A stretch of 33,616 nucleotides of DNA from a virus. This document shows, piece by piece, positions 142 to 33,616 of this stretch. Both the position numbers and the translations under genes were made by a program. How positions within the stretch are numbered: the first letter of the stretch is position 1; the number at the start of each line of letters is the position of its first letter. The stretch lies in the IMG/VR virus record IMGVR_UViG_3300045988_111817, positions 1 through 33,616 of that record; one strand, written 5' to 3'. Under the pieces are notes generated by a model. That model did not search any database and was not told the DNA's origin. It saw only the letters and a list, made by a program, of their open reading frames with translations.

Positions 142-1107
142 GGCAATAGACGAGATTACGGCAACAACAGATATTCCGTATCGAACATAGACCATTGGTT
201 GAACTCGACGGCTTCTGCGGGGCAATGGTATTCGCCGCAACACGCAACAGACCAGTCACCGAACAGCACAAGCGTTGTGTCGCGAAACCCTTACGACACG
301 GATGCAGGATTTTTGACGGGTTTTGACGCTCGCTTCATTGCCGCAATTCAAGACACGACAATCAAGGTCGCACGCAACACCGTAACGGACGGGGGCGGTT
401 ATGACACGCTTACAAGGAAAGTCTTTTTGCCGTCCAAAGCGGAACTCTTTAATCAAGCCGAAAACTCGATTATGGAAGGCTCGCTGTTACAATATTTTCA
501 AGCAAACACAAACGCTATTAGAATAGCGAAAATATCCACCTACGCCGCAGAAGACAATAATAACAAAGGTCCGTCAAGCGTTACAGCGGGTACGGCTTCG
601 TACTATTGGATGAGAACACCCTACTCGTCGTACTCGTACTGTGTTCGCTTTGTCAATTCAGACGGTTCACTGTACTACCTCTATGCGTACTACGGAGACT
701 ACGGGGTTCGTCCGCTTTGTAATCTGAACTCTGAAACTCCCGTGTCAGACCAACCCGATAGCGACGGTTATTACTCGTTACTATTGGACGCAACAGGCGA
801 AATCGAACTTACTTACAATGTCAAGGAAACCGCAACAATGCCCACTGCTGTCAATATCGAATTAGACCTTGTAAAGACCTTTGGTTGCTCTACAACGGTC
901 GAAATTTGCAACAACGGTAATGATACCGTCCCCGTGTGGGAAGACGTTTCTACGGTCGTTAAATCGGGCGTAAACCATATCTTCGCAAACAAGACAAAGA
1001 CAGCGGACAAATGGAAAGTTGTCATCAAAATTCATATCGTGCGAAATGCCACTGTTGGCGATATAAAACTCTACGGGGTTAAGACTACATTTAAGGAAGA
1101 ACTGTAA
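13..1107 (+). CDS. DGR target (variable) protein, main body. The ORF-track start at 13 is internal.
   Basis: The 364-aa ORF contains the VR at 618-716. The motif YYWMRTP...VRFVNSDG...GVRP resembles the ligand-binding end of C-type-lectin/DUF6273-like DGR targets. About 129 aa follow the VR. Confidence 0.9.
   Translation: MGNVIFLKADQNHTGYPENSTTLITDELILLRAFDAKEPNNTDGNRRDYGNNRYSVSNIDHWLNSTASAGQWYSPQHATDQSPNSTSVVSRNPYDTDAGFLTGFDARFIAAIQDTTIKVARNTVTDGGGYDTLTRKVFLPSKAELFNQAENSIMEGSLLQYFQANTNAIRIAKISTYAAEDNNNKGPSSVTAGTASYYWMRTPYSSYSYCVRFVNSDGSLYYLYAYYGDYGVRPLCNLNSETPVSDQPDSDGYYSLLLDATGEIELTYNVKETATMPTAVNIELDLVKTFGCSTTVEICNNGNDTVPVWEDVSTVVKSGVNHIFANKTKTADKWKVVIKIHIVRNATVGDIKLYGVKTTFKEEL
618..716 (+). 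repeat. DGR variable repeat (VR)
   Basis: 99-nt alignment to 32177-32275 with 13 mismatches. Twelve are at TR adenines: VR 631, 640, 641, 650, 673, 676, 679, 680, 682, 691, 697, 700. One is G to T at VR 649. Confidence 0.92.
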
Positions 1108-4362: not shown

Positions 4363-4396
4363 GCATAAATTTTATAAAAAAATTGCAACAAAAGTA

Positions 4397-4425
4397 TTGA
4401 CAAATGCAAGAAAGGGGTGTATGAT
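4397..4425 (+). promoter_or_regulatory. Early rightward promoter P1
   Basis: TTGACA (4397-4402), 17-nt spacer, TATGAT (4420-4425). A TG lies just upstream and the upstream flank is A-rich. Confidence 0.65.
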
Positions 4426-4431
4426 ATAAGA

Positions 4432-7288: not shown

Positions 7289-7335
7289 GTGCGGAAAATT
7301 TTTGAAAAAACTTTGAAAAAAATATTGAAAAACTA

Positions 7336-7364
7336 TTGACAACAAGACGGGACGGGTGTATAAT
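7336..7364 (+). promoter_or_regulatory. Promoter P2, perfect consensus, with phased upstream TTGAAAAA repeats
   Basis: TTGACA (7336-7341), 17-nt spacer, TATAAT (7359-7364), with TG at 7357-7358. TTGAAAAA occurs at 7302, 7313 and 7325, spaced 11-12 bp apart. Confidence 0.7.
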
Positions 7365-7408
7365 GTAACTATAAAGATTAAGAAAGGCGCAAGCCAAAGG
7401 AGTTAAAA

Positions 7409-11137: not shown

Positions 11138-11424
11138 AGTCGATAATTCAGGGCGATAGCGAAGATAGGTGTTACATTTGCGGAAGAGCGGAGTGGATAG
11201 AACGACATCACATCTTCAACGGAACGGCAAACAGAAAGAAATCGGAAAAGTACGGACTAACCGTCCACCTTTGTCATTGGTGTCACAACGAGCCGCCGAA
11301 CGGGGTGCATTACAATCAGGATGCGGACACACGGTTGAAGCAAATCGGGCAAAAAGCGGCGATGCAGGAGTACGGTTGGACGGTGGACGAGTTTCGGGAA
11401 ATATTTGGGAAAAATTATTTATAA
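11134..11424 (+). CDS. HNH-like zinc-binding protein
   Basis: The Cys/His motif is CYICG...ERHHIF...HLCHWCHN. The start overlaps the upstream stop. Confidence 0.65.
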   Translation: MKSIIQGDSEDRCYICGRAEWIERHHIFNGTANRKKSEKYGLTVHLCHWCHNEPPNGVHYNQDADTRLKQIGQKAAMQEYGWTVDEFREIFGKNYL

Positions 11425-11440
11425 AATTGTTGAAAAACTA

Positions 11441-11469
11441 TTGACAAACACGGGACGGGGGTGTATAAT
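11441..11469 (+). promoter_or_regulatory. Promoter P3, perfect consensus, near-duplicate of P2
   Basis: TTGACA (11441-11446), 17-nt spacer, TATAAT (11464-11469). The block 11430-11469 matches 7325-7364 except inside the spacer. Confidence 0.7.
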
Positions 11470-11515
11470 AAGAGTAGAAATAAAGGAAAGGGCAATACCC
11501 TAAGGAGTTAAGAAA

Positions 11516-11908: not shown

Positions 11909-12242
11909 ACAAGAACAAATAGAAAAAATTGCGAAATATGTATGCAATGTGTGCGATTTTCCGTGTAATGACCACAAGGGTTGTCCTCTTGCGGAAGAAA
12001 CAGCCGAAAAAATTTACAAAGCAGGCTACCGCAAGATTGACGATTTGAAAGCCGAAAATAAGCAACTTAAAACCGAGTGTGCCTTGTTGGACGATGAATT
12101 ACGCATTGCGAGGCAGGACACGATCAACGTGTTGAACGAGTTGAAAAAGAAATACGGATTTTATTCGTGCTATTCGTGGAATTGTGATGTGAAATCATTA
12201 AACAAAATAATCGACGAAATGATTAAGGAGTTGACGAAATGA
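11901..12242 (+). CDS. Cys-rich coiled-coil protein, tandem paralog 1
   Basis: GGAGCGG lies before the ATG at 11901. The protein has a Cys cluster, a coiled coil and the tail IDEMIKELTK. Confidence 0.65.
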   Translation: MTKQEQIEKIAKYVCNVCDFPCNDHKGCPLAEETAEKIYKAGYRKIDDLKAENKQLKTECALLDDELRIARQDTINVLNELKKKYGFYSCYSWNCDVKSLNKIIDEMIKELTK

Positions 12243-12619
12243 CAAAAGACGAAATTAAGAAAGGCTTGGAGTTCTGTAAAGCGGACTGGTGCGTTATGTG
12301 TCCATACTGCAACTGTATAGGTTGTGAAGGTTTTCTAAAACAAGATGCCCTAACGCTCATAACCAAGCAAGAACAAGAGATTGAGCAGTTGAAAACCGAG
12401 TTGAAGCAGTTGAAAACTAATGCAGAAATACTCGCAAGGGGCGTAAGGGATTTGAATCACGAGAACTATAAACTTACCGAGAAACTCAAGCAAGCAAAAA
12501 TCGACGTGCTGAATGAGTTGAGAGAGAAATATTCTATGTCTGGCAGCGTTGGTAGCGGTTGGGCAACTATTGTACTTGCAGACAACATCGATGAAATGAT
12601 TGAGGAGTTGAAGAAATGA
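12239..12619 (+). CDS. Cys-rich coiled-coil protein, tandem paralog 2
   Basis: RBS AAGGAG. The architecture matches 11901-12242 and the tail is IDEMIEELKK. Confidence 0.7.
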   Translation: MTKDEIKKGLEFCKADWCVMCPYCNCIGCEGFLKQDALTLITKQEQEIEQLKTELKQLKTNAEILARGVRDLNHENYKLTEKLKQAKIDVLNELREKYSMSGSVGSGWATIVLADNIDEMIEELKK

Positions 12620-31820: not shown

Positions 31821-32168
31821 ATGGCGGTTATTGTTAAAGCGAAATGTCTTATGGAACATAGTTTTAAGATGACCGCCAACACAAAACATTTCCCGAAAAA
31901 GTATCGTTTTTCTATCGGGGCGAGAATAGAAAACCTTGCGATAGAAATCTACGAAAGCCTTGTGCGGGCGAATGAAACGCAAGGCGACGAACGACTGACC
32001 AACCAACAAAACGCAATCATTGCTTGCAAGGTGCTAAATAGTATGATAGAATTGTCTTATAAGACCGTGCAACTCGCAATGAACTCTGTTGAGTATTGGG
32101 GCGGGTTAGTCGTGGAAGTTAAGCGAATGACCGTTGCGTGGCGAAATAGCGAGATTAAAAGGGTATAA
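31821..32168 (+). CDS. avd: DGR accessory variability determinant, a four-helix-bundle protein
   Basis: AAGGA (31815-31819) lies before the ATG at 31821. The pattern HFPKKYRFSIGARIENLAIEIYESLVRAN is typical of Avd/four-helix-bundle proteins. The gene sits directly upstream of the TR. Confidence 0.8.
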   Translation: MAVIVKAKCLMEHSFKMTANTKHFPKKYRFSIGARIENLAIEIYESLVRANETQGDERLTNQQNAIIACKVLNSMIELSYKTVQLAMNSVEYWGGLVVEVKRMTVAWRNSEIKRV

Positions 32169-32176
32169 TCTATTTT

Positions 32177-32275
32177 ACCCTACTCGTCGAACTCGTACAA
32201 TGTTCGCGATGTCAATTCAGACGGTTCACTGAACAACAACAATGCGTACAACGGAAACAACGGGGTTCGTCCGCT
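32177..32275 (+). repeat. DGR template repeat (TR)
   Basis: It starts 9 nt after the avd stop. It reads in the VR frame as YSSNSYNVRDVNSDGSLNNNNAYNGNNGVRP and is rich in AAC/AAT codons. Confidence 0.92.
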
Positions 32276-32418
32276 GTGGTGGATAGGTTAGACCGAGTAG
32301 CGAAAGCGAAAGCACAACTCACCAACAAAGGAGATTATATCCTTTCCGCAAAAGGACAAATACACGATTATCGACACGATTGCGGTTTACGGCGAAAGTT
32401 ATAAGCGATAAGGAAAAA
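32276..32418 (+). promoter_or_regulatory. TR-to-RT spacer, likely the structured 3' part of the DGR RNA
   Basis: It contains GCGAAAGCGAAAGC and the triplet AAAGGA / TCCTTT / AAAGGA at about 32329-32358. That triplet can form two mutually exclusive hairpins. Confidence 0.45.
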
Positions 32419-33447
32419 ATGTACGACAAAATATATAACTTGCAAAACCTTTACGGCGCATACTTAAAGACACGGCGTGGCAAGCGGTGGAAATCATCGG
32501 CTGTCAAGTTTGAGATTAACCTTATAGAGGCGTTGTTGTTGCTTAAAAAGCAACTTATCGACAAGACCTACACTCTGTCGCAATACAATGTTTTCAAGGT
32601 TTATGAGCCGAAAGAACGGCTTGTAATGAGCAACGGATATAAAGACAAGGTGGTGCAACATTCGTTGTGCGACAATGTTTTAGAGCCTATCATCACACGG
32701 TCGTTCATTTTGGACAACTATGCGTCGCAAGTCGGCAAGGGTACGGACTTTGCATTAGACAGATTAAAGTACTTTATGGGGCGATATTACCGCCTTTACG
32801 GTGCTGACGGGTGGGTTTTGAAGTGCGATATAAGGAAGTACTTTTACAACATAGACCACGATATATTGAAAGGTATGTTGCGGAAAATGATAACTTGTCA
32901 AGACACCTTGTGGCTGTGCGACTTGATTATAGATAGCACGGACGGCAAGGGAATACCGATAGGCAATCAGTCGTCGCAACTCTTTGCGCTTTTGTATCTT
33001 AACGGGTTAGACCACTATATCAAAGACAAACTCGGCGTGAAATTCTACGGGCGATATATGGACGACTTCTTTCTGATACACAAAGACAAAAACTACCTTA
33101 AACAATGCTTGGTCGAAATCAATGAGTTTGTGGCTCGATTAGGGCTTGAACTCAACGAAAAAACTCACATATTTCCGCTACGCAACGGCATTAACTTTTT
33201 AGGCTTCCACACATACTTGACCGAAACGGGCAAGGTCATAATGAAACTACGGAGCGACAAAAAGCACAAACTGCTCCGCAAGTACAAGAAAATGTACAAA
33301 CTCTGTCAACAAGGCATTATCGACCAACAAGCGATAAACCTATCTTGGCAAAGCACAAAAGGACACATAGCAAGGGGCAACACACACCACTTGCTGAACG
33401 ATTTAGAATTCAAATTAAAGGAGATACAAAATGGCAACTTTAAGTAG
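32419..33447 (+). CDS. DGR reverse transcriptase
   Basis: AAGGA (32410-32414) lies before the ATG at 32419. Motifs seen: KCDIRKYFYNIDH, IPIGNQSSQLFALLYLN (DGR-type GNxxSQ), GRYMDDFFLI (YxDD) and INFLGF. Confidence 0.9.
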   Translation: MYDKIYNLQNLYGAYLKTRRGKRWKSSAVKFEINLIEALLLLKKQLIDKTYTLSQYNVFKVYEPKERLVMSNGYKDKVVQHSLCDNVLEPIITRSFILDNYASQVGKGTDFALDRLKYFMGRYYRLYGADGWVLKCDIRKYFYNIDHDILKGMLRKMITCQDTLWLCDLIIDSTDGKGIPIGNQSSQLFALLYLNGLDHYIKDKLGVKFYGRYMDDFFLIHKDKNYLKQCLVEINEFVARLGLELNEKTHIFPLRNGINFLGFHTYLTETGKVIMKLRSDKKHKLLRKYKKMYKLCQQGIIDQQAINLSWQSTKGHIARGNTHHLLNDLEFKLKEIQNGNFK

Positions 33448-33616
33448 TTTACCGATTGGGGCAAAAATAAAAGTACCGCATTCCGTTATGGGCAATGTCA
33501 TATTTTTGAAAGCCGACCAAAATCATACGGGTTATCCCGAAAACTCGACAACGCTTATCACGGACGAACTCATTTTACTGCGGGCGTTCGACGCAAAAGA
33601 GCCGAATAATACGGAC
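33431..33616 (+). CDS. DGR target (variable) protein, true 5' end. It continues in frame into window positions 1-1107 across the circular junction, giving 383 aa in total.
   Basis: ATG at 33431 is preceded by AAGGAG (33418-33423). It is in frame with the ATG at 33488, which corresponds to window position 13. It overlaps the RT stop (33445-33447) by 17 nt. It adds MATLSSLPIGAKIKVPHSV to the ORF-track protein. Confidence 0.8.
   Translation, partial: MATLSSLPIGAKIKVPHSVMGNVIFLKADQNHTGYPENSTTLITDELILLRAFDAKEPNNTD
33476..33616. repeat. Terminal overlap, right copy. It is identical to 1-141.
   Basis: Same comparison as for the left copy. The repeat lies inside the DGR target ORF, so that gene is split by the linearisation. 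Confidence 0.95.

Follow-up and report, generated by a model that had tools for sequence, protein, structure and literature searches.

Adenine-specific differences between two repeats point to an active diversity-generating retroelement acting on a short tentaclin of a gut phage

Why should two near-identical copies of a 99-nt sequence, one inside a protein-coding gene and the other in a non-coding gap 1.9 kb away, differ almost only where the non-coding copy has an adenine? This question is raised by the stretch of DNA analysed here (33,616 nt, hereafter the window), in which a first-pass annotation had paired a variable repeat (VR) with a template repeat (TR), described their differences as adenine-specific and confined to codon positions 1 and 2, and read the template as designed for diversification. 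Our answer, which we hold to be nearly certain, is that the repeats are the TR and VR of a diversity-generating retroelement (DGR), and that the cassette appears to be active and to diversify a short tentaclin of a gut phage.

The window represents a circular genome of 33,475 bp; its final 141 nt (33476-33616) repeat 1-141, as a terminal overlap at the circular junction. Since a second assembly of this genome, with a name of the form k141_..., is also 33,616 nt long and has a different start point, we regard the overlap as an assembler artefact of k-mer length, left by a circular or concatemeric molecule. All long open reading frames lie on the + strand. A tail-fibre-like gene stands directly upstream of the DGR genes, the portal and terminase genes are found further upstream, and a replication module is present; this is a circular tailed-phage genome of about 33.5 kb from the human gut. 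The cassette runs in the order Avd-like gene, TR, spacer, reverse transcriptase (RT) and then the 383-aa target gene, which crosses the junction:

618 to 716, + strand: VR, encoding target residues 222-253; 86/99 identical to TR, with residual identity to 719.
703 to 729, + strand: 3' boundary of VR, comprising the shared GGGGTTCGTCCGCT (703-716) and then the VR-specific flank TTGTAATCTGAAC; presumed IMH-like target-recognition region.
1 to 1107, + strand: remainder of the target gene (383 aa in total), with the DUF6273 domain at nt 67-729 and the C-terminal beta-sandwich at about nt 790-1104.
31821 to 32168, + strand: Avd-like gene, 115 aa (Pfam bAvd PF22296, NCBIfam DivGenRetAVD NF033474).
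32177 to 32275, + strand: TR, non-coding, between the avd stop and the RT start; 29 adenines and 10 AAY codons.
32276 to 32418, + strand: spacer of 143 nt between TR and RT, the presumed 3' part of the DGR RNA, with RNAalifold covariation.
32419 to 33447, + strand: DGR reverse transcriptase, 342 aa (RVT_1; IGNQSSQ and YMDD motifs).
33431 to 33616, + strand: 5' end of the target gene, whose ATG at 33431 overlaps the final 17 nt of the RT gene and which runs on across the junction.

The predicted start of the target agrees with the full-length 383-aa homologues P0001 and P0002, which begin MATLSS..., and in two other assemblies of this genome (L095 and L096, described below) the target gene is called intact and the Avd position is called as bAvd. 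A search of the whole 33,616 nt for a second VR-like copy of TR found none. Rfam and tRNA scans returned nothing, and a promoter scan upstream of TR gave no signal above background.

The mismatch map was recomputed from an ungapped alignment of VR with TR (offset 31559), which returned the coordinates of the first-pass annotation exactly. There are 13 mismatches in 99 nt, of which 12 lie on TR adenines (32190, 32199, 32200, 32209, 32232, 32235, 32238, 32239, 32241, 32250, 32256 and 32259), the remaining one setting TR G32208 against VR T649. From TR to VR the changes are A>T (9), A>G (2), A>C (1) and G>T (1). Exactly 17 of the 29 TR adenines are unchanged in VR, which agrees with the approximate count given earlier. 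The probability that at least 12 of 13 mismatches fall on adenines is 6.0e-7 under the hypergeometric distribution and about 1e-6 in 2,000,000 random placements, and the adenine bias thus withstands the permutation null that had been proposed for it. The repeat can be extended to 719/32278 at the cost of one mismatch, T717 against G32276.

With the reading frame fixed from the stop codon at 1105-1107, ten mismatches lie in codon position 1, three in position 2 and none in position 3; realignment spread them neither over the four bases nor over third codon positions. The affected codons are, as had been read, nine AAY and one GAT, and their residues change from N,N,D,N,N,N,N,N,N,N in TR to Y,C,F,Y,Y,L,Y,Y,D,Y in VR, while one of the TR's 10 AAY codons, the AAT at 655/32214, is left unchanged. 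The description of the VR as tyrosine-rich is also borne out, as the window allele has six tyrosines at the 11 AAY-derived sites, equal to the highest count in any of 119 close homologues (mean 2.0; P = 0.007). A>T makes up 9/12 of the adenine changes in the window, compared with 43% in the family described below (P = 0.02). Deamination of the A-to-I type was considered as a cause and rejected because A>T dominates in the window.

TR has beside it genes for a DGR-type RT and an Avd-like protein. The predicted RT matches RVT_1 (E 1.2e-16, profile search), and its translation carries the motifs IGNQSSQ (IGxxxSQ) and YMDD. Its best match in the PDB is 8ub7_A, a 328-aa reverse transcriptase (E 4.7e-40, residues 2-329), which we take to be the DGR RT of the Bordetella phage; the next PDB match is a group II intron RT at 3e-9, with group II intron and retron RTs at 3e-9 or worse, and against group II, retron and Drt models the RT scored below the cut-offs. 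The Avd-like protein aligns with PF22296 at E 1.9e-7 (32 bits, for a cut-off of 40) and with NF033474 at E 1.6e-10 (41 bits, for a cut-off of 80) over profile positions 16-103 of 104; a PDB search by sequence found no solved Avd structure that matched it. The reading frames of both RT and Avd are intact and the catalytic motifs of the RT are present. The locus has an RT of the DGR clade, mismatches on template adenines, a VR in a coding target with a separate and invariant TR, and an Avd-like gene, as expected of a DGR.

If the cassette works as that of BPP-1 does, the avd-TR-spacer region would be transcribed, the RT together with Avd would copy the TR RNA into cDNA with random bases opposite template adenines, and the cDNA would replace VR inward from the G+C-rich 3' end, leaving TR unchanged. 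Close relatives among GenBank phages were not found by megablast, the RT region matching at 65-68% only (nd12 included). The nearest prophage RTs, at 74-75% identity, belong to Clostridia metagenome-assembled genomes labelled Christensenella sp. UBA7588 and uncultured Clostridia, and more distant ones to Oscillospiraceae isolates; the host is probably a gut member of Clostridia.

The first-pass annotation had also suggested a comparison of VR alleles in related contigs, and the adenine-specific pattern proves to be that of a whole family. In IMG/VR at least 80 loci have an RT 62-76% identical to that of the window, and in 69 of these a script located a TR upstream of the RT, at a distance of about 180 nt, and a VR beyond the RT stop, at about 700 nt. 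Pooled over 65 distinct TR/VR pairs with the same gene order, 880 of 911 mismatches lie on TR adenines, as A>G (415), A>T (375) and A>C (90), and 12 of the 31 non-adenine exceptions come from one truncated locus (L026). Every adenine column is mutated in at least one member of these 65 pairs. The same sites stand out in the protein, where, among 119 sequences 84-99% identical to the target, variability is highest in 11 columns that correspond to the ten changed codons and the unchanged AAT, and mean entropy is 1.69 bits in VR against 0.25 outside. Some residues outside VR (215-216, 64, 67 and 110) are also unusually variable among these homologues. Searches with the adenine-masked TR pattern gave no exact match in IMG/VR, and 14 loci in metagenomes at half length. 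In one related contig (L092) the spacer and most of the RT have been lost and the VR is still adenine-specific.

Confinement to codon positions 1 and 2, as claimed for the window, is true of its 13 mismatches and fails as a property of the mutagenesis. Given adenine specificity, the probability that all 12 changed adenines lie in these positions is 0.10, which is not significant by itself because 25 of the 29 TR adenines already occupy positions 1 and 2, 20 of them in the ten AAY codons; the three third-position adenines in frame all sit in four-fold degenerate codons (TCA, TCA and GGA). Third positions can be rewritten, since the L095 allele has a silent GGA>GGG change at 696, and in the family the fraction of adenines mutated is 0.61 in codon position 1, 0.38 in position 2 and 4/14 in position 3. 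The confinement is therefore a consequence of where the template places its adenines. That placement is a family trait: of 1,805 adenines in the related TRs, 14 are in third position, compared with 26% of those elsewhere in the target gene.

The statement that AAC can give 15 amino acids and never a stop holds for NNC and NNT alike, each of which reaches 15, and none of the TR codons can become a stop by adenine substitution. With adenines in positions 1 and 2 and degenerate third positions, rewriting can sample a protein repertoire of up to about 6e14 variants without ever meeting a stop. The view of TR as built for diversification is backed by the cassette, by the family-wide adenine pattern and by variation confined to VR among assemblies of the same genome.

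These assemblies were reached through P0001 and P0002, which are identical to the window protein outside VR and whose contigs were compared with the window. The ENA contig ERZ27289468:k141_100748 (L095) is identical to the window over 21,647 nt; in a further 4,812 nt it shows 18 differences, every one of them in the interval 622-701. The Logan contig SRR2938400_79 (L096) shows 6 differences in 7,152 nt, every one of them in the interval 632-701. TR is identical in the window and both other assemblies, and all 24 VR differences are opposite TR adenines or at positions 622 and 649, where the ancestral template had adenines. As the assemblies are identical over 26.5 kb and 7.2 kb except in VR, the VR changes faster than any other site in the genome, and the check on VR alleles holds at this finest scale too, with the 18 and 6 differences restricted to VR. 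Such VR-only differences point to recent DGR activity and are very hard to obtain otherwise, the activity being read from assembled contigs, which can be chimeric in hypervariable regions.

Compared with one another, the three VR alleles are mosaic: 10 derived states are common to the window and L096, which differ at 6 interspersed sites. One full redraw of a 3'-anchored tract would not be expected to leave this pattern, and it may instead come from chimeric assembly, patchy repair of cDNA/VR heteroduplexes, recombination between alleles or convergent selection. At two sites the alleles also bear on the template, as the present TR has T and G there, opposite A622/G649 in L095 and T622/T649 in the window. 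No strictly clonal history fits both alleles with one TR, and one non-adenine event or recombination of co-circulating genomes is needed.

At both of these template positions, where the window TR has T (32181) and G (32208), 63 of the 65 related TRs carry an adenine, and their codon at 32208 is AAT or AAC. Among them are the sisters L085, L088 and L093, whose cassettes are 97% identical to that of the window. The window TR differs from these sisters at two sites only, A32181T and A32208G, both first positions of AAY codons; A32181T is a second derived TR change and turns AAC into a fixed TAC. If the ancestral template is taken as the reference, all 13 mismatches are on adenines (13 of 13; P = 3e-8). 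The TTT codon at G32208/T649 was probably written from AAT, in which case T649 would be an A>T product of the AAT stage of the TR codon and the A>G substitution in TR would have followed later. That T649 instead arose by direct RT misincorporation or as a spontaneous VR mutation, with no later TR change, strikes us as doubtful, at about one chance in five. Non-adenine template mismatches make up about 2% in the family (19/~899, with L026 left out), occasional non-A changes have been reported in such systems (PMC10743442), and reconciling the three alleles requires some non-adenine event or recombination anyway. However, both sites that vary opposite a non-A template (622 and 649) are the ones with A in 63/65 related TRs, and by a hand estimate the chance of two such sites among about 70 non-A positions is about 4e-4.

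A further and more speculative thought, to which we give rather little weight, draws in part on the mosaic VR alleles. The template may not be strictly protected, with mutagenised information sometimes returning to TR (through VR-to-TR conversion or cDNA homing into TR) and with VR rewriting being patchy. VR alleles of the same clone carry the two derived TR bases at the matching sites, and the L022 TR has 11 A>N changes beside a perfectly conserved flank and still templates the L022 VR. If this were true, DGR templates would drift or be reprogrammed through their own activity. A general adenine bias of TR changes in the family is not supported, as A is the starting base in 24 of the 116 changes placed on a minimum spanning tree, a share close to that of adenine among the columns; L022 clearly departs from this.

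Three other accounts of the locus as a whole have to be weighed against an active DGR. The least credible, which we would set aside almost entirely, is that an ordinary duplicated segment gathered point mutations which positive selection at a binding site then fixed, with no reverse transcription. Residues 215-216, 64, 67 and 110 are unusually variable and lie outside VR, so conventional diversifying selection does act on the target protein, but selection on a protein does not tie its changes to adenines in a non-coding copy 1.9 kb away (P = 6e-7 in the window; 880/911 in the family), and it leaves both silent third-position changes, such as that at 696 in L095, and the invariance of the non-coding copy unexplained. 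It is also very improbable, if less so, that the cassette is a relic which formerly wrote VR and is now inactive, VR being a frozen allele. Two AAY codons present in the sister TRs are gone from this TR, and L092 retains an adenine-specific VR without spacer and most of the RT, so adenine-specific mismatches alone are not proof of current activity. Against a relic stand the intact RT and Avd frames with the catalytic motifs in place and the assemblies that are identical over 26.5 kb and 7.2 kb and differ at 18 and 6 VR positions only.

The account with the most to recommend it accepts the DGR and questions only the allele, taking the window VR, six tyrosines included, for a consensus or chimera that assembly made of a mixed population of VRs and that may exist on no single molecule. 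The window is a metagenome assembly whose 141-nt overlap equals the k in the sister's 'k141' name, its tyrosine count is at the extreme of the family, and path-switching in a de Bruijn graph could give VR alleles that are mosaics with common sub-blocks. We nevertheless think this unlikely. A 99-nt VR fits within one 141-mer, and the final assembly step should thus retain a real haplotype; furthermore, the window and L096 come from different runs and assemblers and have 10 derived states in common, which argues for a real and abundant haplotype family.

Where TR and VR part company, after 716/32275, they have just passed the G+C-rich shared GGGGTTCGTCCGCT. The flank CGCTTTGTAATCT is conserved across the family VRs, and the TRs have CGCTTCGGTGGA-type sequence there. 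On the template side, the 3' end of TR (32262-32277) is predicted to pair with 32379-32400 and GGTGG (32278-32282) with CACC (32320-32323), the window coordinates having been mapped by hand from the family alignment. In an RNAalifold consensus of 16 family members, compensatory changes are seen in 11 of the 32 pairs; pairing holds in 96% of cells, compared with 33-52% when the partners are slid, and the observed covariation was reached by 0-1 of 500 shuffles. The alignment fits a TR 3' end and spacer that would form a structured DGR RNA like that of BPP-1. Folding of single sequences, for the VR 3' flank and the TR-spacer RNA, gave z-scores near 0 (-0.2 for the VR flank) and was uninformative, the signal coming from the comparison of family members only. 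A search for a hairpin or cruciform 3' of VR found no inverted repeat or stem of at least 5 bp within 100 nt, and none conserved in the family. To our knowledge, surveys do not count a hairpin downstream of VR among the defining features of DGRs, and its absence here sets the window apart from BPP-1 only.

The target protein has a DUF6273 domain (PF19789, E 2.1e-36) at residues 38-258, followed by about 125 residues. VR falls at the C-terminal end of this domain, at residues 222-253, with 130 codons downstream of it, and a C-terminal beta-sandwich domain spans about residues 279-383. Compared with the tentaclin of nd12 (nd12_tgt1), the N-terminal domain shows 50% identity (E 3e-73) and the last 90 residues 32% identity (E 2e-12), with nd12 residues 285-489 absent. 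The last 90-105 residues also align with the C-termini of relatives at 27-47% identity, the targets of these relatives being about 580 aa long with the same end domains as the window target. An N-terminal DUF6273 domain that carries VR, a length of 383 aa within the range of 313-649, and a C-terminal Ig-like domain are what is found in tentaclins, and by its sequence the protein is classed here as a putative short tentaclin, with a DUF6273 domain containing VR and one C-terminal Ig-like domain. A search of the window for the small second target known from related phages (tgt2-like, about 170 aa) found no homologue.

An AF2 model of the target built from a three-clade alignment reached a pLDDT of 71 overall, compared with 42 from a shallow alignment, with 33-54 in VR and an all-beta C-terminal domain. 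In a fold search this model matched DUF6273 structures only, namely 9qa6 and predicted phage proteins, and a C-type-lectin fold was not recovered. Published models of homologues would give the domain a C-type-lectin fold and put VR at the surface. The binding surface proposed in the first-pass annotation would follow from the same homologue models. The target itself is probably a receptor- or ligand-binding protein.

What the locus offers is a clean natural example, in which the same phage genome from separate samples has zero differences outside an 80-bp stretch, and it should be useful for following DGR dynamics in the gut, whether in reads or in culture. It adds a short, single-target member (a predicted C-type-lectin domain and one Ig-like domain) to the tentaclin-type DGR phages, and shows that the tentaclin-type family here lacks the downstream hairpin that BPP-1 requires. 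The family of gut phage DGRs to which it belongs has already been described, and current understanding of DGRs is unchanged.

Tentaclins have been described as proteins with an N-terminal C-type-lectin-like DUF6273 domain, in which VR encodes a hairpin, and with one to four Ig domains, the last being a conserved anchoring domain, in a length of 313-649 aa; their TRs place 25-28 adenines in AAC/AAT codons, and a bias towards aromatic residues is reported together with occasional changes at bases other than A (Baykov et al. 2023, PMC10743442). The window resembles the tentaclin DGRs of nd12 (OR777946.1) and nd4 in having a small upstream gene, then TR, RT and a target overlapping the RT stop, in a TR that encodes a ...YNGNN GVRP motif, in adenines mostly in AAC/AAT and in the aromatic bias. 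However, its target is without the two middle Ig/Fn3 domains of nd12 (residues 285-489), the nucleotide identity of its RT to that of nd12 is only about 65%, and it has a single VR and no second target, whereas related phages have the small tgt2-like one. The Faecalibacterium prophages Roos, Lelie, CP11 and Pioen (PMC11792537) likewise have DUF6273 targets with VR at the C-terminal end of the domain. These phages carry large and small targets together, and their activity was inferred from VR-restricted variation among cognate genomes (PMC11792537); the window differs in having no second target and probably in its host.

The sole solved structure significantly similar to the target is the N-terminal DUF6273 domain of the Thomasclavelia ramosa IgA peptidase (PDB 9qa6; PMC12402451), with a profile E of 1.2e-14 over residues 38-265, a Foldseek E of 4e-10 and about 19% identity. 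That domain is part of a bacterial surface protease and is not known to be diversified. With BPP-1 (mtd-avd-TR-brt) the window has in common the adenine-specific TR-to-VR differences, the AAY-rich template, Avd and RT, the G+C-rich element that closes the shared repeat, and the structured RNA of TR 3' end and spacer. In BPP-1, a GC-rich hairpin or cruciform downstream of VR (4-34 bp) is needed for efficient homing (PMC3240598), and none follows the VR here. The BPP-1 target lies upstream of the RT, has an Mtd domain and carries VR at its extreme C-terminus, whereas the target in the window lies downstream of the RT, has a DUF6273 domain and carries its VR internally.

The window opens and closes on the same 141 nt (positions 1-141 match 33476-33616 exactly). 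This length equals the k given in the name of a sister assembly of the same genome (ERZ27289468:k141_100748; L095), which is also 33,616 nt long and begins at a different point. The genome is therefore a circular (or concatemeric) molecule of 33,475 bp, and its terminal overlap is a signature of assembly rather than a physical terminal repeat.

The variable repeat (VR) alleles of the window, L095 and a further assembly, L096 (SRR2938400_79), are mosaics with common sub-blocks of substitutions in genomes that are otherwise identical. Positions 622 and 649 are polymorphic among these three alleles, and the template repeat (TR) they share now carries T and G there. Single full-tract rewriting does not explain this pattern. 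Variable residues of the target protein were also found outside the TR-homologous stretch:

598-603, aa 215-216, a short way upstream of the VR
145-147, aa 64
154-156, aa 67
283-285, aa 110

Among close homologues these residues reach entropies of 1.9-2.8 bits, nearly as high as those of the diversity-generating retroelement (DGR) sites, and diversifying selection of the conventional kind, acting around that same surface, may account for their variability.

Two related phage contigs differ in the cassette itself. In L022 (IMGVR_UViG_3300045988_019455), the repeat copy at positions 2725-2826 lies upstream of the reverse transcriptase (RT) gene, where a TR is expected. Compared with the TR of the sister contig L021 it shows 11 A>N changes, and the preceding 60 nt are identical between the two. 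All differences between the L022 VR and this altered TR fall on adenines that the TR still has. It looks as though the template itself has been overwritten by mutagenised sequence and is still functional. The second, L092 (ERZ1034669 NODE-178), comes from a related phage (89-94% identical) and has a 1,065-nt deletion, across which the TR runs from its final base straight into the 3' end of the RT gene (junction matching window position 33343), so that the spacer and the greater part of the RT are lost. Its VR nevertheless differs from its own TR at adenines only, and the contig is either a derivative that lost its RT by natural deletion or an artefact of assembly.

Elsewhere in the window, a 60-nt repeat occurs in three copies:

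4367-4426, first copy
7306-7365, second copy
11411-11470, third copy

Each contains a near-consensus promoter (TTGACA-N17-TATAAT/TATGAT) preceded by an A/T-rich tract, and the three are probably early or middle phage promoters.

The 383-aa target (compared stretch 730-1104) lacks a middle segment of ~195-205 aa; every relative compared (L001, L005 and L116) has this segment in its target of ~580 aa. In the window target, the conserved C-terminal domain follows the VR domain almost directly. NCBI gives P0133, a relative in the ~580-aa group, the name 'fibronectin type III domain-containing protein'.

The TR 3' end and spacer (32262-32400) form a conserved RNA structure with covariation support, in which a GGTGG/CCACC helix becomes GATGG/CCATC in relatives; no Rfam family matched the window. 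The GC-rich hairpin or cruciform that follows the VR in targets of the type of Bordetella phage BPP-1 is absent from 717-816, 3' of the window VR, and in its place the flank CGCTTTGTAATCT is kept across the family.

Ten relatives (L081-L084, L086, L087, L089-L091 and L094), 76-97% identical across aligning modules, carry a small DUF6273-only gene of ~170 aa, whose VR matches the 3' two-thirds of the TR family to which the window TR belongs. One of them, L084, has ~640 nt in place of the region that in the window holds the Avd-TR-RT-target cassette. The window has no such small-target gene; the corresponding region (~12150-12610) holds an ORF at 12239-12619. The ~170-aa gene resembles 'target2' and the small targets of the tentaclin phages nd4 and nd12 and of Faecalibacterium phages.
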